From a virus (taxonomy: Duplodnaviria > Caudoviricetes): a stretch of 43,070 bases of DNA. Positions 4,646 through 41,577 of this stretch are shown here, in pieces. The stretch is from IMG/VR virus record IMGVR_UViG_3300017747_002824, positions 1-43,070 of that record. One strand, written 5' to 3'. A model generated the notes under the pieces. The model was not told the origin of the DNA and made no database searches. It saw only the letters and a program-made list of their open reading frames with translations. A program made the position numbers and the translations under genes. The number at the start of each line of letters is the position of its first letter. Position 1 is the stretch's first letter.

Positions 4646-5353
4646 CTAGTTTCCACTGTTCAGAACCTTCTTTCGCAGGTCCGCAAGGGACCCGTCATTG
4701 GTAATGATCCGGTCGTACAAGGGGCCGGACTCCGGCAGTTCAGACTCGGAGATGTGGCCGTTTGCCGGCCCGTTACCGGGGCGAGTGACCCGCCACAACT
4801 CCCCGCCCTGCCCCTTGATCCACGAGGTCTCATTGAAGAACCGGCAGTCCGTCACCACAACACGGGGCGGGTAGCCTGCGGAGGCAAGACGGTTGGCTAG
4901 AGCGGTCACCCACACATCCTTGCCGATCTGATCCCGACATGCAACCCCGAGGTTCTGCAAGAACTCACGGGCGGCAGGGACCTGCTCCTTCACGGCGTCC
5001 CAATCCCCGTAGCGGAGGAAGAAGCGGGAGAGCGGGAGTGTAGCGCCGGGGATAAGCCCCGTGTACGGCTCTTGCAAGCGGGGGTTGATCTCCGCCGCAA
5101 CGTTCTTGAGAGCTTGAGCAAAGGACTCCTGCCGGAAACCCTGCTCATCCGCAAGGATCTGCCCTACAGAGTCCTTACCGCTGCGAGCGTACCCGCACAG
5201 CCCGATCAGGCGGGTAGCGGGGGCGAAGATTGACGGGTTCTCGTCAAGGTTTGCACGGATTTGCCCCGCAGCGTCTCGCATCTGCTGTCGGGCGGCGTCA
5301 AGGTGCCGCTGCTGTTCTGCAACGTGTTCTTCGTGCGTGGCAGTATCAGACAC
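4646..5353 (-). CDS. deoxynucleoside monophosphate kinase
   Basis: LIGLCGYARSGKD P-loop; REFLQNLG; VVVTDCRFFNE; HISE; NDGSL. Confidence 0.9.
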   Translation of the reverse strand: MSDTATHEEHVAEQQRHLDAARQQMRDAAGQIRANLDENPSIFAPATRLIGLCGYARSGKDSVGQILADEQGFRQESFAQALKNVAAEINPRLQEPYTGLIPGATLPLSRFFLRYGDWDAVKEQVPAAREFLQNLGVACRDQIGKDVWVTALANRLASAGYPPRVVVTDCRFFNETSWIKGQGGELWRVTRPGNGPANGHISESELPESGPLYDRIITNDGSLADLRKKVLNSGN

Positions 5354-5501
5354 GGATCTTCTCCTCGGAATAGGCGGACCACGCAGCAGCAAGGTCGGAC
5401 AATACGTCCCCCCCCTCTGCCCTGAGTCCGTGAACGGCGTACAAGTACCCTGCCGTAAAGGCTTCCCGGTCGCTGCGCTTCTTCTGTTCTTTGCGGTTCA
5501 T
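5346..5501 (-). CDS. hypothetical protein (MNRKEQKK...)
   Basis: Coupled small ORF in the operon. Confidence 0.6.
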   Translation of the reverse strand: MNRKEQKKRSDREAFTAGYLYAVHGLRAEGGDVLSDLAAAWSAYSEEKIRV

Positions 5502-31900: not shown

Positions 31901-32754
31901 ACAACGCCCGCCTCGCACACTTCATCTCCAAGCTGGACGAAACTGGGAGCGCCGTGGACGCTGCCACGTCCGTCCGCAAGTACCTGTTCGACTACGGGGA
32001 CCTGACCCCGTTCGAGCGCAAGGTGATGAAGCGGGCGCACGCCTTCTACACCTTCACCCGCAAGAACACGCCGTTGCAGTTCGCTGAACTTGCACGCAAC
32101 CCGTCCAAGTTCACTCGTGCCAACCTTGCCAAGAACATGATCCTCGGCAACGGGGAGGAAGACGGCAACGCACCTGACTTCATGTCGGAGATCGGGACCC
32201 CGCTCGGGAAGTCGCAATCCTCGTTCCTGTCCGGCACCGGTAACCCGGTGGTCGGCAACATCGAAACCCCGTTCGACGCCGCCATGAAGACTGCCGACCC
32301 CCTGCTGTTCCTTGCCGGAAAACGCAGCGGGCAGGAAGCAATGCAGGGCGTGGCAGGGAACTTCTCAGGCGGTCCCGCAGAAGTCGCCAAGATCATCGGA
32401 GACTACGCCTCCGGCAGCAGCAGCTTCACAGGTGCCGACCTCAAGTCTCAGGACGGAAACTACAAGATCAACCCGCTTGTGCGGCTGTCCACCGCTGTCG
32501 CTCCGAACATCAGCAAGGGGCTGCGGCTGCTCGGCTCTGACTCCGCAGGACCGCCCGGGGACTCTGCCCGCCTGCGGGTCATCAAGGCGCTCACGGGTAT
32601 TCAGGCAAAGGAACTGACCCCGGAGATGCGGGAGATCGCCGCATCACAGAAGGTCAGGACGGTACAGGACGTGATCGACGCCTTGAAGAAGGCAGGCGTG
32701 GCCGTACCCACTGAGAGCGAGTTGGAGCAACTCGGTCTGCTTGAGGAAGACTGA
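28987..32754 (+). CDS. large internal virion/DNA ejection protein (1255 aa)
   Basis: Last and largest structural gene; helical; GFHVKN, EDNARLA, LFDYGDLT, FYTFTRKN resemble podoviral large core proteins. Confidence 0.7.
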   Translation: MLRRSRGGSRGGGSGFTPFAPARSSSSGFVPSGDVEADLARLQTQKLVNAVKRGEIPGGSPEKEAEQEADALIKRLLLSPDEKAQQEGIRLQAALGVGGAAAALQADQANSITAKALKAGAPVIEFISRPSNMTQEAIQAGVQATGADKLFSGEWRLNEDEKATELSSTRQANEAGAEEKKDLSPEAAALLGEGSAGSGGFRDVIRAAKGEARWDPTSLTYTKNLSYQNALGSDDSFNTGALGKVTDVANFTGTAAVDPLNFISGGSAGAVRKTAAEGAETLLRTGAKELTPALARELGQETVEGLSKEAVQQAIQKVGIRKGLTPTQLDDVTRGLQPSADVALKGDRLPRRAVRALTGKGTRTGEERVAEDIVTQALKFDRGGARIAGRSLTPEAVRAPVRAAVRGERREIGDTLARQALNEGQQRLVLKAEEKAAKKLAKADEFIAEADRVAVEGNPEDAVKLFSKAKGEQTKAAKDLAKAAELAGETDVQALMDAGAGNILTPTALVTERRILPRTTGKIQKGAAGMFRTRSEVRASKSLPVGTDKIVETAKTQGQGAAGQARRQAERVLNAAVRDTDAITPELIEGTRRALDVGGDIDEYIKTLPAEQIPYAQGMKELRNSTYDTQVAKRLADPSKLRVREDYMPRYVTKEAAEALEKAVRLYPEDVTFSSFSTARQQAGQGGRLLRRKFMKDSTLEEVDAVVSQKLIDAGLLPEGSHALELDPAVILPRRFNDMLPALQLKEQVTRMEDSVRGTMGEKLVKIVHPGEKDLPNLARRGFKKIPLGEDANLGAIYAHPDLAPEITDYVRMTTNPDAVGEFGKFMDGWNRLWKSYATVPLLTGTGFHVKNSIGNTFNNYLAGVNTAAYKEALELQANIWKAKRLHPDLSVPDALRAMKVPDDSVRKAELALENSVLEEGFFNTDLSQHAELATQGKRSKGQRALAKIDIRNPNEMFGVPTGRKVGEHIEDNARLAHFISKLDETGSAVDAATSVRKYLFDYGDLTPFERKVMKRAHAFYTFTRKNTPLQFAELARNPSKFTRANLAKNMILGNGEEDGNAPDFMSEIGTPLGKSQSSFLSGTGNPVVGNIETPFDAAMKTADPLLFLAGKRSGQEAMQGVAGNFSGGPAEVAKIIGDYASGSSSFTGADLKSQDGNYKINPLVRLSTAVAPNISKGLRLLGSDSAGPPGDSARLRVIKALTGIQAKELTPEMREIAASQKVRTVQDVIDALKKAGVAVPTESELEQLGLLEED

Positions 32755-33067
32755 GCGCAAGCGGCACTGCCGCCAACGCCTCATAGACCGGAATGCCGAG
32801 GGTGCCGGCGTGCGCCACCTCAAGGTCAGCGCCGGGAGACTCACCCGTCAGACGCAGCAGGGCGTGACAGTGGCGGAGCAGATCAAAGTCATACGCCATC
32901 CAATCGTCGTACTCAACGGGAGACACTATCTGATGAATGACGGACCACTGCGGCAGGAACGGAATCCAACCGAGATCCCGCAGGGGCTGAAAGACCTCCG
33001 CCGCCTGCGCCACGCACCCAAACGGGTCCCGGCTGATCGGACCTGCAACGTAGATGAGCGGCTTCAT
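32654..33067 (-). CDS. NDT-fold (DUF4406/DUF1937-like) protein
   Basis: IYVAGPIS...D..LL..C.ALLRL.GESPGA..E...A...GIPV. Confidence 0.75.
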   Translation of the reverse strand: MKPLIYVAGPISRDPFGCVAQAAEVFQPLRDLGWIPFLPQWSVIHQIVSPVEYDDWMAYDFDLLRHCHALLRLTGESPGADLEVAHAGTLGIPVYEALAAVPLALSLPQADRVAPTRSQWVRPRLPSSRRRSRPVPS

Positions 33068-33237
33068 GCAACAACCACGAACGGATAAAGGTAGTCGTCG
33101 TCGCAAGGGTCTAGGGCGTACGCAGTGCCAGCACGCACACCTACAATATCTAGCCGCCCGTCCCACTGGTCCTCCCGAGTCACGGTCCAATCCTGCGGCA
33201 TCTCTTGCAACTTCTCAATCAACTCTGCAACGGTCAT
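33064..33237 (-). CDS. small hypothetical protein (MTVAELIEKLQEMPQD...)
   Basis: Translated by hand; common phage N-terminus; ATGA coupling on both sides. Confidence 0.65.
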   Translation of the reverse strand: MTVAELIEKLQEMPQDWTVTREDQWDGRLDIVGVRAGTAYALDPCDDDYLYPFVVVA

Positions 33238-34043
33238 TGCCAAAGGGTCCCTTCTTGGTCGGGGTACTTCTCATTCAGAAACTCACGGAGCGGGACGCCC
33301 TCATACTTCTGACACAAGTAGTCCATTGAGACCTCCATGATGTCAAACGCCCCATCCTTCACCTCATGGAAGACAAGCAGCCCACGCCAATGAGCGTTGC
33401 CCTGCACGCCCTTGTAGTCCTCATCATGCAGGTAGAAGGCACCCGCAATCACGCCCCGCTGCGCCCGCCCACGGACGAAACGAATGCAGGACTCATAGGT
33501 CTGTTGGTGCCCCTGAACGTAGGTGTGCCCGAGCGTCTTGAGCCGGGTCAGAGCTTGTCCCCCGTAGGGCTTTCCGGTCATCGGGTTCGGCCAGAAGTGG
33601 CAGTACGACACACCGTCCACATCCAACGGGGTCAGGAACGGAACCGTGATCCAATCCCGTGTGTCCAGATCATTGCCGACAAGGCCGATGAACTCGGGGT
33701 GTTCCTCAAGGAACCTGCGGATACGGTCCTCATGGTTCCCACCAAGCAGGTACTTGACGGGGGAGTACGGGGTCTTCCGCTTGCGGTTGGCGTCCACGGT
33801 CGGCTCGTCAATCAGACGCAGCCCCGTGTTGCCCGCCTGTACGTCCGCAGCGTAGCGCCGCCCCTCGAACTGAAACTTGCCCCGGTCCCACGACGACAGA
33901 GACTCCATGTCAAAGTGGTCACCGAGATGGACGATTACGTCAGGCTTTCGGTCCAGGATGTACCTGCCTGCCCACCGCAGGTGGTCCATCGGCACTCCTG
34001 GCTTGACCTGCGTGTCTGGAATCACAAGATGCGAACGAGTCAT
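33234..34043 (-). CDS. calcineurin-like metallophosphoesterase
   Basis: IPDTQ, HLGDHFD, GNHE, YCH, GHQQ motifs. Confidence 0.88.
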   Translation of the reverse strand: MTRSHLVIPDTQVKPGVPMDHLRWAGRYILDRKPDVIVHLGDHFDMESLSSWDRGKFQFEGRRYAADVQAGNTGLRLIDEPTVDANRKRKTPYSPVKYLLGGNHEDRIRRFLEEHPEFIGLVGNDLDTRDWITVPFLTPLDVDGVSYCHFWPNPMTGKPYGGQALTRLKTLGHTYVQGHQQTYESCIRFVRGRAQRGVIAGAFYLHDEDYKGVQGNAHWRGLLVFHEVKDGAFDIMEVSMDYLCQKYEGVPLREFLNEKYPDQEGTLWQ

Positions 34044-34495
34044 ACCAACCACCCCCAAGTTCTTCCAGCCTTCACGTCATGGATTGTTGCAGGGGACACG
34101 CCGTATAGCCTCGCAAGGGTGGGGATTGGTTCTGTGCTTTCCCTGATCCAACGGACGTACTGCTCATTCAGCTTGGCAGCAGCGCATCGCTCACCACGAT
34201 TGGACGTGCCGTCCGCCACCTTGTCCATCTGATTCTCTGCACGGGTAGCCCAACGCAGGTGGCGAGGATTGAAGCAGGCGGGCGTGTGGCAGGAGTGCGC
34301 CGCCTCAGCTTCGGCAGGAGGAGTGCCGTACGACAACTCGCAGGACAGCCGGTGCGTGTACCGCTTCTTGCGATTGATCCTGATTTCCCCGTACCCGACT
34401 CCGTTGTGGGAGTAGGGCCACAAGATACACTCATCTGTCTCCTGCTCTCGCAATGACAGGAACTCATCGAAGGCTTTGCCGTATGGTGCTCGCAA
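34040..34495 (-). CDS. HNH endonuclease
   Basis: CILW...GYG...THR...HSCHTPACFNPRHL..ATRAEN..D plus C-terminal HTH; own TGC-TACACT promoter and AAAGGAG RBS. Confidence 0.88.
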   Translation of the reverse strand: MRAPYGKAFDEFLSLREQETDECILWPYSHNGVGYGEIRINRKKRYTHRLSCELSYGTPPAEAEAAHSCHTPACFNPRHLRWATRAENQMDKVADGTSNRGERCAAAKLNEQYVRWIRESTEPIPTLARLYGVSPATIHDVKAGRTWGWLV

Positions 34496-35907: not shown

Positions 35908-38376
35908 TCACGTCTCGTCAGCAGGAGATTCGAGCAGGTGCTTGCGGATCGCAAGGCAGGACACAGCCCTACCGCCCCGTGCAACGAAGGCGTGCGTAGC
36001 ATCCTCCGCCTGATAGCGGTCCCGCAGGTAGCGGGTCACCGCAGCCTGACGGCCCGGTAGACGGAACGCACCCTGCTTCTCAATGTGCGTGACAAACGAC
36101 GTGACACGGACATACACGTTCTCCGTATCCGACGCCACGAACATGAAACAATCCGGCTCATCCAACGCCCACAGGAGGGCATCCTTGATCGGGTTGTGGG
36201 CCGCAGCCTCCATGCCCGCCGCAGCAACCCACGACAAATCAGGAGTACCGAGAGCCTTACCCCCGTTTTCTTGCACAAACCGGTCCAACAGGGCAAAGCC
36301 CCACGCCACCGTGCCGAGGTTGTCCCGCTGACGGGTCGGAGCGCCTGCGGGGCCGACCGGATCGGGGGTCAGGTAGATGTTGCCCGCCGCAAGCTGCGCT
36401 GCACACCACTGCAAGTACGCAAGGGGAAGTCCGGTGTCTCCCCAACCCCGCACAGCGGAGAGGATCTTTGGGTCCTTGCCGTCCGCAGGCAAAGGCAGGT
36501 TCACCATGCGCTCCGTGTGCGAGGTCTCCGTGAACATGTCCTCACCGGACACGATGATCGGGGCGTGCGTAGGCATGGCGCTGATCTCCGACCAACGCTC
36601 CCCCATGCCGCCCTTCGCACTGATCTGGTTGGTGTACGCATCCCGCAGGAGTTGCTCAAGAGCGATCTGCGTGTCCTTGCGGGCACCGGGACGGTACTCA
36701 TCGAACCACACCGGAAAGGCGTTCGTGCAAGCAAGGAACGACGCAAGAGCGTGCTTGGTGGTACTTGTCAGGTTGGTGGAAATGTCCGCACCGGAGAAGG
36801 CAGAGAGCACCGTCTGCAACAGGGTGGTCTTACCGGCACCGGAGGACCCCGTAACCGCAAGGGTCGGGAACGACGGGAGCAAGGCACGGAACGGGGCAGC
36901 GGCAAGCCAACCGAGGATCGGGTCCATCACATCCTGACGGTGCAGACCCCGCAACTTCGTGATCTGCAACACCGTCCACGGCTCATCCGTGAGGGTAAGG
37001 CGGGACTCAAGATGCACGTCATAGGACGGCGGAGAGTAGACAAGGTTGGACTCCCCCGCCCGACCACCCGGCCACACGAACGCCGTGTCATGCAGCCCCG
37101 CCGTGTCCACCATCCTGCCCTCAGGAAGCAGCGTGCCCTCCGCCTGCAACATGGCAAGCAACGCCTGCCCGTCACGGTCAGAACCGAGCCACGCTGCCCC
37201 GTGCCGTGAACTCCACGACACGATGCGTGCCTTGGACGACAGGTCAGCAGAGGTGAGGACCACCTCCTTCCCCGTAGGAACAAGGATGCCACGGTACGCC
37301 GTCGTACCCTCAGGAGAAACCAGTTCATACTGTGCCTCCAGCCGCCAGTTGGACAGCATGACGTTTGTATCCTTACCGGGACGAACGTAGATGTCCCCTT
37401 GCACCTTGATCGTGTCCGGTGCCGGCTTGATCGAACGAGTGCGGCGGAACAGCGCCGGAAGGTCATGCACGGAGCGAAGATCCTGCCCCTCAGGGACAGG
37501 CAGGAACGCCACCACACAACCCGCAGCGAGCAACGCTGCGGACCACCTGCGGGTAGCGTCCTGACCCGCCTTGTCCCCGTCAAAGCCGAGCAGAACCGTA
37601 CGGCCCTCAAGCCCCTGCACGAACGGGGGCGTCCCCGCACCGGGGAGTCCTAGAACAACGTATCCCGCAGCACAGGCCGCATCTTCCGCCGCCCAACAGT
37701 CCGACTCCCCTTCACAAAGCAGGACAGGCAAGGCAGGATCACGGTCCCGCCACTCCCCGTACAGCACGCCTCTAAGGGACGAACCGGGGGCAGCGAGGGC
37801 AACGGTGTCAGCGGTACGGTGCTTGTACGCAACGAGTTCTCCTTGACGGTTGTAGTACGGGATGATGATTTCCGGCCCACGGGAGCCAACGAGCCACTCC
37901 CCTTGCAGGTGCTCAGGGTCAACGTGCAGCCCCTTCTCCGAACAGAACGCCCAAAGGGCATCCTGCTCTGCGACCGCCGCAGCCGCCACCACACGGGACT
38001 CCACAACGGGGTCCCACCGGGCACCGCCGCCGTAAGAGGCGGTGACGGGGGGCTCCCATCCAGCAGGCATACGGGCGTAGGTAGCCTGCGCCTCCGCCAT
38101 AGCCGCAGCGAAGGAACACTCCTCCAACTCTTGCAGCAGGTCGATCACATCCCCGCCCTTCCCGCAGGGGGGGCAGTTCCACCGCCAACCGAGGGATTCT
38201 TCCAACCATGTATCAAAGGACGGGTCCGTGTCAGCGTGCAGGGGGCAGCGACAAGCCAACCCCTTGCCACGGGCAACCAAGTCCACCCCCCGATCCGCCA
38301 ACACGAACGGGATCGGCAGGTTCACCTTGAAGAACGAGGGCGTTCCCTGCTCTGCTGCATTCAGAAGTTCTTGCAC
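35908..38376 (-). CDS. DNA primase-helicase (CHC2 zinc finger, TOPRIM, P-loop ATPase)
   Basis: CPLHADTDPS...CPPC; CEGESD; FDGDKAG; GSSGAGKT; WFDE. Confidence 0.9.
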   Translation of the reverse strand: MQELLNAAEQGTPSFFKVNLPIPFVLADRGVDLVARGKGLACRCPLHADTDPSFDTWLEESLGWRWNCPPCGKGGDVIDLLQELEECSFAAAMAEAQATYARMPAGWEPPVTASYGGGARWDPVVESRVVAAAAVAEQDALWAFCSEKGLHVDPEHLQGEWLVGSRGPEIIIPYYNRQGELVAYKHRTADTVALAAPGSSLRGVLYGEWRDRDPALPVLLCEGESDCWAAEDAACAAGYVVLGLPGAGTPPFVQGLEGRTVLLGFDGDKAGQDATRRWSAALLAAGCVVAFLPVPEGQDLRSVHDLPALFRRTRSIKPAPDTIKVQGDIYVRPGKDTNVMLSNWRLEAQYELVSPEGTTAYRGILVPTGKEVVLTSADLSSKARIVSWSSRHGAAWLGSDRDGQALLAMLQAEGTLLPEGRMVDTAGLHDTAFVWPGGRAGESNLVYSPPSYDVHLESRLTLTDEPWTVLQITKLRGLHRQDVMDPILGWLAAAPFRALLPSFPTLAVTGSSGAGKTTLLQTVLSAFSGADISTNLTSTTKHALASFLACTNAFPVWFDEYRPGARKDTQIALEQLLRDAYTNQISAKGGMGERWSEISAMPTHAPIIVSGEDMFTETSHTERMVNLPLPADGKDPKILSAVRGWGDTGLPLAYLQWCAAQLAAGNIYLTPDPVGPAGAPTRQRDNLGTVAWGFALLDRFVQENGGKALGTPDLSWVAAAGMEAAAHNPIKDALLWALDEPDCFMFVASDTENVYVRVTSFVTHIEKQGAFRLPGRQAAVTRYLRDRYQAEDATHAFVARGGRAVSCLAIRKHLLESPADET

Positions 38377-38397
38377 GGGTCTCCTTGTAGACGGGGA

Positions 38398-38421
38398 GAG
38401 GGGCGGGTTTCCCCGCCCCTC
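38398..38421 (-). terminator. GC-rich hairpin between SSB and primase (attenuator/terminator-like)
   Basis: GAGGGGCGGG-GAAA-CCCGCCCCTC; no clear U-tract. Confidence 0.5.
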
Positions 38422-38444
38422 CCGGTTTCTCCTTTCCTTAGCCG

Positions 38445-38957
38445 CTAGAAGGGAGGAGGGGTGCCTCCCGCAGCGGGCGGGGCGGTCTGTGCCGGGGCGG
38501 CGGGGGCGGGGGCAGACTCAAGGCGCTTGAGCTTCTTCATGTCGATGTTGGTGTAGCCTCCGCTCTCACGGGACTTCACCTCGGCGGAAACAATGGTGCC
38601 GACAACGGCATCCTGCACATCCTCCGAGATGGTCGGGGAATCCGTGTCCCACTGAGCCACCACGTCAGCGTCAGCGCCGAGGGTAGCAAGCTCACGGAAC
38701 GACATGGCAAGGCCCATCGTGTTCGGCTGACCGTCGTTCTTCACAGCGACCAGGTTGATGTTCGTCCAGAACTTCTTGCCCTGATCCGGCCCGTCAAGAA
38801 CCTCCCACTGAATCCCGAACTTCGGGTCGCCCTTCTGGGTCTTCGAGCCGTTCGCTCCCGCAACACGGAACGTGCCCGGTCCATCGGGCGGGGAGTAACT
38901 GCTGATCCCCGCTTCTTCGGCCTGCTTGAGCAGGTCTGCCATAGAGGTTGATGCCAT
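38445..38957 (-). CDS. single-stranded DNA-binding protein (DUF669-like)
   Basis: Internal AGGAGA RBS and ATG; WEVLDGPDQGKKFW; Pro/Ala tail ending PPF; next to primase and the AAA_24/exonuclease module. Confidence 0.75.
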   Translation of the reverse strand: MASTSMADLLKQAEEAGISSYSPPDGPGTFRVAGANGSKTQKGDPKFGIQWEVLDGPDQGKKFWTNINLVAVKNDGQPNTMGLAMSFRELATLGADADVVAQWDTDSPTISEDVQDAVVGTIVSAEVKSRESGGYTNIDMKKLKRLESAPAPAAPAQTAPPAAGGTPPPF

Positions 38958-39653
38958 CTGTTTCTTCTCCTGATTTCGTGGGAATGAGATTTCCGGCATC
39001 TCGAAAGGGAAGCCGGGGAACATATTGGAGCTGGTCTTGTGGGGGTGGGTCGCTCCGTACTCCAACCACCCTAGCACCTTCGGCAGATTGATGTCTGGCC
39101 CATAGGTGAGAAATGTGCCATCTACACTATGACAGCCCCATGATCGGGCTATCTCGTATCTCTTGAAGGAGTTGACCCGGCCCATGTGGACCCAGCGCCC
39201 CTCCTTGACAGCCCTCCTTGTGATTTCCTTAGCCACCGACCCGAGTTTCCACTCGGTCGTCCCGCCAATGAACAAGACCGGAGCCTCATTCGGTGGCGGA
39301 ATGTTCCAAGGAGTTGACCCAACCTGCAAGACGAAGGCGGGGGTGAACCCGTGGAGGGCGATGAGGGGGCCGTAGCGGCGGTACCTCTTGAGTGTTGCCT
39401 TGTGGCACTCACCGCCCTCCGGATCGTATTCGTCAGGTGCTACGACAAACCGTGTGGTCCGAGGGAGGTTCTGAATCCAACGGTACCAGTGGTCATGCTG
39501 CCAGTTCTTCGAGAAGCAGCCGTTGTCGGCCATCACGTCCCACTCCTCGGGGAACACCACGTTCCCTTGTTTGGGGGTCGTGATGCACCCGAGCAGCAGG
39601 GCCGACATTGCGTCGTTGATCTTCCCTGTGCTGGGGTTGCCGTAGTAGATCAT
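38445..39653 (-). CDS. TGT/DpdA-like transglycosylase, open in frame into the SSB (402-aa fusion ORF)
   Basis: ADNGCF, FVVAPD, LFIGG.TEWK, VHMGRVN, SVDGT motifs of TGT-barrel-like phage proteins; no stop before the SSB ATG. Confidence 0.65.
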   Translation of the reverse strand: MIYYGNPSTGKINDAMSALLLGCITTPKQGNVVFPEEWDVMADNGCFSKNWQHDHWYRWIQNLPRTTRFVVAPDEYDPEGGECHKATLKRYRRYGPLIALHGFTPAFVLQVGSTPWNIPPPNEAPVLFIGGTTEWKLGSVAKEITRRAVKEGRWVHMGRVNSFKRYEIARSWGCHSVDGTFLTYGPDINLPKVLGWLEYGATHPHKTSSNMFPGFPFEMPEISFPRNQEKKQMASTSMADLLKQAEEAGISSYSPPDGPGTFRVAGANGSKTQKGDPKFGIQWEVLDGPDQGKKFWTNINLVAVKNDGQPNTMGLAMSFRELATLGADADVVAQWDTDSPTISEDVQDAVVGTIVSAEVKSRESGGYTNIDMKKLKRLESAPAPAAPAQTAPPAAGGTPPPF

Positions 39654-39824
39654 CTACACTCCGGCTGCTTCTCGGTACTTCCGATATGCCTCCCGCTTGG
39701 ACCGCCCGTAGACGCGGACAGTCTCCGTGTGTCCGGGGAACAGTGCCGGGTACGGACAGTTCACCCATCTGCACACCCAAGCACGATCTGATCTGCGAGG
39801 AGCGGTGGTGCGAAGTAGTTGCAT
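39654..39824 (-). CDS. small basic hypothetical protein (56 aa)
   Basis: Translated by hand: MQLLRTTAPRR...; TGATG and TAGATG coupling. Confidence 0.55.
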   Translation of the reverse strand: MQLLRTTAPRRSDRAWVCRWVNCPYPALFPGHTETVRVYGRSKREAYRKYREAAGV

Positions 39825-40333
39825 CAGACGCTCCGGGTCGTGCGTCGTGACCGTGCCCAGTAGACGATAGGCAGAGCGGGGAGGATCATCAGCGCCTTGC
39901 CGATTAGCTGCCCCGCCACAGCGTCAGCCGTGAGGGATGCCACACCGAAAGCGATTCCGAGGAATAGCACAGTGTCGATGACTGCACCGACGATGTTGCT
40001 CAGCACCACACCGAAAGTCCACGACCGCTTGCGAAGGGACTCGTAGATGGTGAGGTCTGCAAGTTCACTGAACAGGAAGGCAACTCCTGATGCCACTGCC
40101 AGAGCAGGGGCAATGAAGTAGGACAGGCCCGCTCCAACGAGGATGGCCCCGACCACGACCCACCGACTCGTCACTTCGGAGAGTGCGTCACGCACCCCGA
40201 GGACAAGGCCCGCTGCAAGCGTCCCCGCCGTGGCGGAGATGCCGAACACGGTGACGAACCCCCACCGGACGGTCATGGCGTTGGCAAGCCAGATCAGTCC
40301 GATGTACCCGAGAATCAGTAGTGCCTTCTTCAT
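39824..40333 (-). CDS. VUT/YhhQ-family queuosine-precursor transporter
   Basis: LAN...AGT...RD...ASGVAFLFSELAD..IY..LR...SNIVGAVIDTVLFL.IAF. Confidence 0.85.
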   Translation of the reverse strand: MKKALLILGYIGLIWLANAMTVRWGFVTVFGISATAGTLAAGLVLGVRDALSEVTSRWVVVGAILVGAGLSYFIAPALAVASGVAFLFSELADLTIYESLRKRSWTFGVVLSNIVGAVIDTVLFLGIAFGVASLTADAVAGQLIGKALMILPALPIVYWARSRRTTRSV

Positions 40334-40710
40334 GCTTGGTCTCCTTGCAGTACGGTATCAAGTGTGTTGTGAATCTCATCTGAGTGGTAGCGAAGCCACG
40401 GAGAGATCCTTGTTCCCTCAGGGATAACGAGAATCACCTTCTTGCCGATGTCGTGGGCGAAGAAGATTTCCATAGCCGTGCCCCAAGAGACCTGCCAGCA
40501 GTTCGCCAAGAACACGTCGCAGGCGTAGATGTCTGCAATGTCTCCCTCAACGATCTCGTTGACAGACTCATCCTCACGCCCCCTGTAGTCCCGACGCATC
40601 GGGTCAAGGAACTCAAGGTGTGGGCGGTCGGCCATGAAGGCATCTCGCCACCCGCTAGCTCCTTCATCGGAGCAGCCGTTGATTGGTCCTGCAAGGTACA
40701 CGGTGGTCAT
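40330..40710 (-). CDS. nucleoside 2-deoxyribosyltransferase-like protein
   Basis: VYLAGPI...WR...DP...D...I..CD...SWGTAME. Confidence 0.85.
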   Translation of the reverse strand: MTTVYLAGPINGCSDEGASGWRDAFMADRPHLEFLDPMRRDYRGREDESVNEIVEGDIADIYACDVFLANCWQVSWGTAMEIFFAHDIGKKVILVIPEGTRISPWLRYHSDEIHNTLDTVLQGDQA

Positions 40711-40805
40711 TGTGCTTCGTTCTCCCTTGCTTCCTGTCGGGCAGTTGCCCGTGCTTCTTCTTGGTCGTAGTCGGTTGGATCGTAAACGCCGTACTCGTCA
40801 AGCAT
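40707..40805 (-). CDS. very small acidic protein (32 aa)
   Basis: Translated by hand: MLDEYGVYDPTDYDQEE...; AGGAGA RBS; coupled. Confidence 0.45.
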   Translation of the reverse strand: MLDEYGVYDPTDYDQEEARATARQEARENEAQ

Positions 40806-41577
40806 CGGGGGTCTCCTGTTCCTGTTCCGCCTCTGCGGGGTTGAGAACCCGCAGCATAGCAGAGATGTCGGGGTACAGGATCTCATCCCCGTAGTGGTGG
40901 GACAGGACGTGCGTGTTGTCCTTCGCCGTCACCCCGTCACGGTAGCCGTCAATGATGAGGAACCGCTCACGGTCACCCGTGGACTTGTTGATCCGCTTCC
41001 CGAGGTAGCCCATCACATCGAAGTGATAGCCGATCCGATCCGCAAGCTGCCCTTGCAGGAGGGCGGCTTCACTGCCGTCTTTGTCCCTCGTCCCGCAGGC
41101 CACCACGACAGCCCACAGTGGGTTGGACGGATGCTTGCGGAGGTCACGGAAGTTGCGGACCACCTTCTCCAACTCACGCAGCGCCTCGCCCCAATCCTGC
41201 AACTTCATCTGCCCGGTACCGGCGATCCGGTCGATCAGACGTTGCTGCGTCTCGGTGATTGAGTCGATGCCCACGGAGCGGAACGGGTGATTGCCGGAGG
41301 CAAGCCACTTGTATGCCTGCTCCACGACGATGAAGTTCTGCACGTCCACGACCGTCACCGCATCCGGCTCTGCGCTCTCCGCAGGCGGAGGATTGCGGGG
41401 GTCCCAATGCACGATGTGCTGTGCAGTAAGACCCTGCGGGTCTTTCTGCAAATCCGCAAGGTACTCGGACCGGCCCTCCGCATCAAGGATCAGCAGAGGC
41501 TTCGGGGCGCTGTTAATCAGCCAGCTTTTGCCCGCACCGGGGTCCCCCTGGATGAACGCTGTAAGTCTGCGGCTCAC
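40798..41577 (-). CDS. AAA_24/Sak4-like ATPase (recombinase)
   Basis: GDPGAGKS, LILDAEG, GIDSITE, QDWG; next to the exonuclease. Confidence 0.85.
   Translation of the reverse strand: MSRRLTAFIQGDPGAGKSWLINSAPKPLLILDAEGRSEYLADLQKDPQGLTAQHIVHWDPRNPPPAESAEPDAVTVVDVQNFIVVEQAYKWLASGNHPFRSVGIDSITETQQRLIDRIAGTGQMKLQDWGEALRELEKVVRNFRDLRKHPSNPLWAVVVACGTRDKDGSEAALLQGQLADRIGYHFDVMGYLGKRINKSTGDRERFLIIDGYRDGVTAKDNTHVLSHHYGDEILYPDISAMLRVLNPAEAEQEQETPDA

Follow-up and report, generated by a model that had tools for sequence, protein, structure and literature searches.

Does a phage make a DNA base-exchange enzyme that is joined in one polypeptide to its own single-stranded DNA-binding protein (SSB), and, if so, how did the two come together and what might the joining do? 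The question is raised by one open reading frame (ORF) of IMG/VR virus record IMGVR_UViG_3300017747_002824, whose 43,070 nucleotides (nt; hereafter the window) form the complete genome of a phage, with terminal repeats in direct orientation. A preliminary description of this DNA had read the ORF as a tRNA-guanine transglycosylase (TGT)/DpdA-like domain fused in frame to the phage SSB. Our analysis confirmed one uninterrupted frame of 402 codons, from 39653 to 38445 on the minus strand, which contains the motifs ADNGCF, APD, FIGG, HMGRVN and SVDGT and passes through a 30-residue linker into the SSB. We found that the fusion is real and that it arose by insertion of a gene cassette, a recent and local event. 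The reading that we favour, to which we give a probability of about 0.45, is that the locus makes free SSB together with a minor fusion, which would ride on SSB-coated phage single-stranded DNA (ssDNA) and swap guanine for the imported 7-deazaguanines preQ0 or preQ1, the SSB replacing a tail by which relatives may dock on the beta clamp. The parts of the ORF are as follows.

38445..39653, minus strand: fusion ORF, 402 amino acids (aa), predicted small TGT/DpdA-like transglycosylase plus 30-aa linker plus DUF669 SSB (ORF call; the architecture is repeated in proteins P0136 and P0137)
39048..39653, minus strand: predicted transglycosylase domain, residues 1-202, a phrog_15826 member with a TIM barrel and no zinc (Zn) subdomain motif (profile, model, alignment)
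38958..39047, minus strand: linker, residues 203-232, in place of the family's usual tail (tail comparison, third-position GC content)
38966..38971, minus strand: AGGAGA ribosome-binding site, 8 nt 5' of the SSB ATG (similar site in unfused relatives)
38445..38957, minus strand: SSB, 170 aa, predicted DUF669-like oligonucleotide-binding (OB) fold, Pro-rich tail ending PPPF (DUF669 E 0.043, under the cut-off; fold match)

The fusion exists in three sequence variants. The exact protein belongs to a 90% cluster of 16 members. The 15 that are listed comprise three fusions, of 402, 404 and 406 aa, and 12 proteins with the SSB part only, among them a 92-aa fragment. Where a contig is short, an SSB-only call is no proof that the gene is unfused. 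In the other two fusions, P0136 (404 aa) and P0137 (406 aa), the junction is open as in the window, and five differences fall in residues 1-232, one of them the start codon and one within the linker. The SSB alleles differ among the three fusions, each of the other two being nearest to a different unfused protein: the SSB core of P0137 is identical to that of unfused P0135, and the core of P0136 differs by 1 residue from P0140 and by 7 from that of the window.

Sequencing runs were also compared, seven of the 24 listed being covered. One contig of run X1, with a depth of 59.9, spans 37500-40974 with zero differences or gaps; this run is a possible source of the record and is hence not independent. 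A 198-nt contig of run X2, with a depth of 3, crosses 38962-39159 gap-free with nine differences, and the six that are listed are all synonymous and lie in the enzyme part. The three others are unlisted, which leaves room for a stop in the final codons of the linker in X2. An error of sequencing or assembly, by which a stop was removed or the frame shifted, is very improbable and was rejected: P0136 and P0137 are known as protein sequences alone, but three distinct variants share the open junction and the contigs of X1 and X2 are gap-free. The indel or lost stop against which the preliminary description had warned is thereby largely answered.

Its question of whether relatives keep the fusion received a divided answer: the three cluster members do, but most close relatives lack the enzyme, and none of the other family members examined is joined to an SSB. 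A search for longer forms with the N-terminal half returned six proteins of at least 355 aa, none fused to an SSB, and the same search with the SSB half returned no long proteins. Both blanks are weak, because the three known fusions, which are clustered under a 177-aa SSB, escaped these searches. A degenerate linker pattern had zero matches in viral contigs, and the only close match in a metagenome scan, which may not have covered near-identical records, was the window's own record. Roseobacter phage CRP-701 was considered as a second fusion and rejected; the match is annotated 'ssDNA-binding protein', but its ORF stands alone, is 199 aa long and lies next to a VUT gene. This ORF, gene 6 of CRP-701 (L005:3896-4495), is a stand-alone member of the transglycosylase family, and its label looks misplaced.

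How the fusion came about is seen in close relatives. The 1.8 kb between the Sak4 gene and the SSB gene are absent from loci L008-L012. In contigs of runs X2, X3 and X4 the SSB start region is joined to 40720-40838, and contigs of X6, X7 and X8 cease to resemble the window immediately upstream of where the SSB begins. In the window the cassette lies between Sak4 and SSB in the order deoxyribosyltransferase-like gene, YhhQ, small ORF and transglycosylase.

38948..40746, no strand assigned: cassette of about 1.8 kb that close relatives do not have (their joints: 38948 to 40720-40746, 38942 to 40838)
40798..41577, minus strand: Sak4-like AAA_24 annealing ATPase, the usual SSB partner (start placed by comparison with L008)
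40330..40710, minus strand: nucleoside 2-deoxyribosyltransferase-like gene, 126 aa, first in the cassette (PF05014 E 6e-10)
39824..40333, minus strand: YhhQ/Vut_1-like putative queuosine-precursor transporter, 169 aa (PF02592 E 8e-12; TIGR00697 46.5 bits vs a cut-off of 50.95)
39654..39824, minus strand: 56-aa ORF that belongs to no known family and whose TAG lies immediately before the fusion ATG (translational coupling would be possible)

The internal SSB start is present as first described, with AGGAGA at 38971-38966, 8 nt before the ATG at 38957, from which the 170-aa C-terminal half is read. It is not special, however: unfused relatives, both among the runs and among the loci, have an AGGAGA- or AGGAAG-type site just 5' of the same SSB ATG. 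Since cassette-free relatives begin their SSB in a like manner, the start inside the fusion ORF is simply the usual one of the SSB gene, kept through the arrival of the cassette, with no sign of design. The fusion start has only GGAG as a ribosome-binding site, its ATG coming directly after the upstream TAG, and is GTG-type in both P0136 and P0137. A minor fusion product is plausible, because the enzyme start has a weaker ribosome-binding site than the SSB start.

The interval between Sak4 and SSB is a variable insertion site among relatives. The two genes abut in L009-L012 and are separated by two small ORFs in L008, and the leader sequence varies among runs X3, X4, X6, X7 and X8. No nucleoside deoxyribosyltransferase-like gene was found beside phrog_15826 members in 80 viral loci.

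Third positions of the linker are GC-rich in the fusion frame (22/30 vs 25/60, p 0.004), so the linker has a coding history, possibly older than the fusion. Only one amino-acid change is found in the linker across the three variants, which is too few to show selection. The linker has no stable RNA structure (z +1.08), and neither a promoter nor a minus-strand terminator was found in it. None of the data sets listed as containing the sequence was of RNA. A model of the full-length fusion was poor, with a mean predicted local distance difference test score (pLDDT) of 38.7, and is uninformative on domain contacts.

The N-terminal half is a member of phrog_15826 (E 9.5e-51) and is 40-44% identical, across the whole domain, to phage genes labelled 'DpdA-like tRNA-guanine transglycosylase'. 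A search restricted to 111-354 aa gave 1732 homologues of about the same length; those listed, 120 in number, span 190-248 aa. Its AlphaFold2 model is a (beta/alpha)8 TIM barrel with a pLDDT of 95 and a predicted template modelling score (pTM) of 0.91. Foldseek gave DpdA of S. Montevideo (7ui4) as the top match (E 1.7e-4). VIA-align gave TGT 3unt at Z 14.7 (rmsd, or root-mean-square deviation, of 2.8; 195 aligned), Cap10 at 14.4 and DpdA 7ui4 at 13.9, TGT/DpdA structures lying between Z 13.4 and 14.7 over 195-198 residues at rmsd 2.8-3.1 and unrelated TIM barrels scoring within 1 Z unit of TGT, Cap10 and DpdA. In the viral fold library, 10 of 50 rows were named queuine tRNA-ribosyltransferases or transglycosylases, and a phiST protein was weak, at rank 30.

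Solved structures searched by sequence yielded no TGT. With a shallow profile, neither Rosebush DpdA nor E. coli TGT was matched significantly. The profile built from 82 diverse members matched the validated DpdA of Rosebush (probability 69.7, E 4.2e-5), with D43, D74 and GG in register, and had no match to E. coli TGT. Residues D43, D74, Q110, G131, H156 and D178 are invariant in all 82 members. D43, D74 and D178 supply the three aspartates expected of the TGT/DpdA superfamily; D178, which lies past the Rosebush alignment, would be the nucleophile by motif order alone. In S. Montevideo DpdA the active-site aspartates are Asp95, Asp130 and Asp256 (PMC10164549, in the part available, as for most papers cited here by number). 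The barrel model, the fold matches and the Rosebush alignment thus bear out the TGT/DpdA-type assignment first made for this half.

The residue Gln110 (82/82) stands opposite the base-pocket His of phage DpdA1, which is His196 in the DpdA of Enterobacteria phage 9g (PMC6884629). The domain shares with phage DpdA1 (9g, CAjan, Mycobacterium phage Rosebush gp2) the TIM-barrel transglycosylase motifs in the same order, a YhhQ neighbour and the predicted exchange of G for 7-deazaguanine in DNA; Rosebush DNA carries dPreQ0 (PMC6884629). It differs in its size (about 205 aa vs 385 aa in Rosebush gp2), in Gln for His, in having no precursor-synthesis genes with it and in the C-terminal SSB. It has the barrel fold of bacterial DpdA (7ui4) and of tRNA TGTs (3unt, 1iq8), but has no Zn-site motif, no large insertions and no DpdB ATPase seen with it; the CxCxxC motif occurs in 0/82 members. 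Its direct family is the phrog_15826 or SEA-PHAGES 'DpdA-like' group (Sonali gp81, GreaseLightnin gp55, ReqiPine5 gp03), whose members are stand-alone, about 200-215 aa long, often with a QxxLF-like tail, and not fused to an SSB. We predict that the N-terminal half works like DpdA but is not DpdA1, and the stand-alone enzymes, in which a clamp-like tail goes together with Gln in place of the DpdA1 His and with the lack of a Zn motif, may form a DpdA subfamily that has no name yet.

A YhhQ-like gene was found within 4 kb of the enzyme in 68/80 viral loci, 51 of which have it directly upstream; among genome loci, 30/80 have one within 3 kb. In the window it lies 171 bases upstream. This neighbour, with the fusions of other members to QueC and QueF, ties the family to 7-deazaguanine precursors at the genomic level. 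The complete genome gave no match to QueC, QueD or FolE, so the 7-deazaguanine base would be salvaged.

The barrel might instead act on tRNA or other RNA, or bind or transfer a deazaguanine in the manner of Cap10 of the CBASS defence system (bioRxiv 2025.04.06.647259), the SSB link then being unrelated to DNA marking. The invariant Gln110 in place of the His of validated DpdA1 would suit such a role, TGT, Cap10 and DpdA were tied in the fold search, and Orion, a phage with DpdA only, has no detectable modification (PMC6884629). DpdA2, however, likewise lacks the His and yet modifies DNA (PMC6884629). The clamp-motif-like tails, and fusions of the family to DNA methylases and Mom, also point to DNA. 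tRNA TGTs carry a CxCxxC Zn motif, which none of the 82 members has, and the profile did not match E. coli TGT. We consider a non-DNA substrate unlikely.

The C-terminal half is a predicted DUF669 OB-fold SSB. Its match to PF05037 (DUF669) is under the cut-off (14.4 bits vs 21, E 0.043), and PHROG SSB families match it weakly. In the Atlas it fell to DUF669 clusters with a score of 0.94 (203/256 features; cluster 74% DUF669). In a low-confidence model, residues 251-383 match OB folds, with PrgE at Z 8.6 (rmsd 3.4, 104 aligned) and RPA, Rim1 and SSBs at Z 5-6. The Atlas score and the OB-fold match agree with the DUF669-like SSB of the preliminary description. Similar pairs are Gp63-Gp64 of the 'Healer' system (PMC13687109), with a DUF669-like OB fold, a Pro-rich tail and an AAA_24/Sak4 partner, and Sak4-SSB of HK620 (PMC5928155); in the window, in contrast, the pair is split by the cassette and the SSB carries an enzyme at its N-terminus.

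This pairing bears on where the fusion might work. The DUF669 protein Gp63 is reported as an oligomeric ssDNA-binding SSB that, with its AAA protein, repairs CRISPR-cut phage DNA (PMC13687109). The enzyme might thus serve recombination and repair, and not forks, marking DNA under repair after restriction or CRISPR cuts; the DUF669 identity of the C-terminal half and its usual AAA_24/Sak4 neighbour speak for this. The same paper, however, also terms the system replication-associated, the SSB gene of the window adjoins a primase gene, and marking confined to repair sites would reach only a small part of the genome. We regard a repair-only role as improbable. The replication fork, named in the preliminary description as the site of action, stands as possible; it is one of two possible sites, since the DUF669-Sak4 pair is also a recombination/repair module.

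The best argument for tethering is a feature that the preliminary description had missed, namely the tail, similar to a clamp motif, that is often seen in the stand-alone family. The stand-alone proteins stop 10-15 residues past the last helix, often with QLSLF, QPSLF, QPALF, QPMLW or PMLWE. The clamp consensus is Q-L-x-L-F, mostly C-terminal, in insertion sequence (IS) transposases (PMC4549789), and mycobacterial ImuB uses QLPLWG (PMC10421592); the stand-alone relatives resemble these clients and the phage Mu C protein (PMC12867686) in this, whereas the motif is missing from the window protein at that position. From 354 sequences we obtained 341 tails, 327 of them distinct, of which 292 were of at most 60 aa and the 35 longer ones were omitted; the patterns were chosen after the tails had been seen. 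Q..[LM][FW] occurs in 49/292 distinct tails vs 4.0 +/- 2.0 in shuffles (maximum 12), and [QP].{1,2}[LM][FW] in 130/292 vs 17 +/- 4. LF or LW stands at one fixed position in 87/142 tails. A later set of 80 genome loci provided 62 distinct tails that were short and closed, a few of which duplicate viral ones and many of which are related Streptomyces copies; here the two patterns were found in 13/62 vs 0.7 and 27/62 vs 4.0. The tail thus resembles a beta-clamp-binding motif, is enriched above chance and is a putative docking site.

Among the nearest relatives the commonest tail form is PML[WF], with Gln absent. The window has PHKT where relatives have PxL[FW], and neither Q..[LM][FW] nor a hexamer clamp motif was found in the 402-aa fusion. 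A predicted complex of the P0014 tail (residues 174-208) with the clamp of S. coelicolor, a stand-in host, scored 0.54 vs 0.01 for the best control, with a partner pLDDT of 43-46 and at least 50% of contacts common to the runs, which gives weak support. The mark for such predictions is reached by 116/157 solved and 2/215 mismatched pairs, and at scores of at most 0.60 by 18/157 and both mismatches; the P0014 score may reflect likeness to solved clamp-peptide complexes. The wording 'clamp-binding motif' was not found among the literature matches listed, and the available part of bioRxiv 2023.04.13.536721 does not mention 'clamp'. Literature searches gave no precedent for a phage DNA-modifying enzyme that binds the clamp, Mom of phage Mu included.

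The genome of the window encodes a family A polymerase (PolA), an SNF2-type helicase, a primase and WhiB, a gene content that points to an actinobacterial host. Its PolA has neither a 5-mer nor a 6-mer clamp motif, and the genome gave no match to a phage-encoded clamp. Among 48 longer records of the 80 viral loci, three carry PolA and none was found to carry PolB or Pol III alpha. An LF/LW tail is present in 0/3 PolA carriers vs 25/45 records without PolA. In the 822-aa primase-helicase of the window (35908-38376) a single motif match, QDALW, occurs at residue 138, with the zinc finger domain on one side and Toprim on the other.

Step by step, the reading that we favour runs as follows. The 1.8-kb cassette was placed directly before the SSB gene, and the enzyme frame reads stop-free into it; the old SSB start would yield abundant free SSB, and the enzyme start the minor 402-aa fusion. 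The YhhQ-like protein would import preQ0 or preQ1, and the barrel would carry out DpdA-type double-displacement base exchange, leading to restriction resistance. Stand-alone relatives, which have no Zn subdomain motif, may often reach DNA through C-terminal QxxL[FW]/PxL[FW] docking on the host beta clamp. This phage would replicate by its own motif-free PolA, with the SSB in place of the tail, and the SSB would carry the enzyme to ssDNA at forks and Sak4 recombination intermediates, where guanines would be unpaired. A wider form of this idea is that minimal phage transglycosylases are replisome passengers needing a tether, that this lineage dropped a clamp motif useless at a PolA fork in favour of the SSB, that the nested start sets the enzyme-to-SSB ratio and that 7-deazaguanine is written into ssDNA during replication; we hold this form to be possible but doubtful.

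Nearly as likely as the tether is an accident that was tolerated: the cassette would have arrived without an enzyme stop and in frame by chance, the enzyme would work by itself with the SSB as an irrelevant tag, SSB function would be saved by its own strong start, and the arrangement would spread as the cassette is useful. Several observations weigh against the tether, and some of them favour this accident directly. The 90-nt linker stays stop-free in 33% of shuffles, which with 1/3 for the frame gives a chance of about 0.11 of an open junction. The fusion occurs only in a single lineage of closely related phages; no SSB match was found in the other stored family proteins, and an unfused SSB lies nearby in 0/80 genome loci and 1/80 viral loci. 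The GC-rich third positions may be inherited from the donor gene, and the one amino-acid change in the linker among the three variants is no proof of selection. The Sak4-SSB interval varies freely in relatives.

C-terminal fusion is, moreover, common in phrog_15826, since 9 of 26 long members scanned had a second Pfam domain above or near the cut-off (two DNA methylases, QueC, two QueF, HNH, Mom, a helix-turn-helix domain and a peptidase); PAPS-reductase-like domains also occur as partners. As for the tail, LF or LW is found in 141/292 tails vs 82 +/- 7 in shuffles, so that about half are without it, and the window linker keeps a weak, Gln-less SSNMF five residues past the motif position. The PolA-tail association is weak (p 0.10 in the 48 records, 0.03 in those at least 90% complete, 0.20 if QQLTW of L058 counts), L035 and L094 having been added by hand and the statistics ignoring kinship. 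Two PolA phages, L022 and L035, have an unfused enzyme with no tail motif, that of L022, a 95%-complete phage, lying 1.4 kb from its own SSB gene. With about half of the tails lacking LF/LW, these two make a tether seem dispensable. The DNA substrate is itself only inferred, because Q110 sits where DpdA1 has His, and our literature search found no biochemical test of phrog_15826.

Against the accident, and for an SSB tether, stand the junction being kept on three different SSB alleles, the coding-like third positions in the linker frame, and the fact that the lost segment is exactly the motif-bearing tail.

The further fused members have the domain joined to DNA methylases, QueC, QueF, HNH, Mom and PAPS-reductase-like domains (P0124, P0210, P0237, P0127, P0275, P0260, P0128 and P0148). 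C-terminal extensions of 150-580 residues were seen in L104, L105, L158, L161, L164 and L166, from Kitasatospora, Longispora and an actinomycete metagenome-assembled genome. In L022, a 128-kb PolA phage, the SSB, Sak4, YhhQ and transglycosylase genes lie within 3 kb (L022:1868-4630), on opposite strands and unfused.

The fusion is apparently undescribed, and the preliminary description knew of no account of it: no publication combining DpdA, SSB, fusion and transglycosylase was found in a literature search that left most subscription literature outside. Named phrog_15826 carriers were not found in the supplements of PMC6884629 and PMC10516641, where accession-only listings could hide carriers. 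The fusion touches the question of how phage DpdA finds phage DNA, spares the host chromosome and reaches high occupancy, and with the clamp-tailed relatives it offers a matched pair for probing tethering and ssDNA preference. It also points to a large family of transglycosylases of about 205 aa, with 2728 representatives at E <=0.001. DpdA modification has been termed post-replicative (bioRxiv 2023.04.13.536721), and an account of the DpdA catalytic scheme raised ssDNA as a possible requirement (PMC10164549). Writing of 7-deazaguanine into ssDNA during replication, if true, would oppose the view of DpdA acting post-replication on duplex DNA. If the fusion is merely tolerated, it is a clear case of gene fusion through cassette insertion, of modest interest.

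Elsewhere in the window, a second nucleoside 2-deoxyribosyltransferase-like gene (32654-33190) accompanies that of the cassette (40330-40710), and the genome also has a dNMP kinase gene (4646-5392) and a metallophosphoesterase gene (33234-34058).

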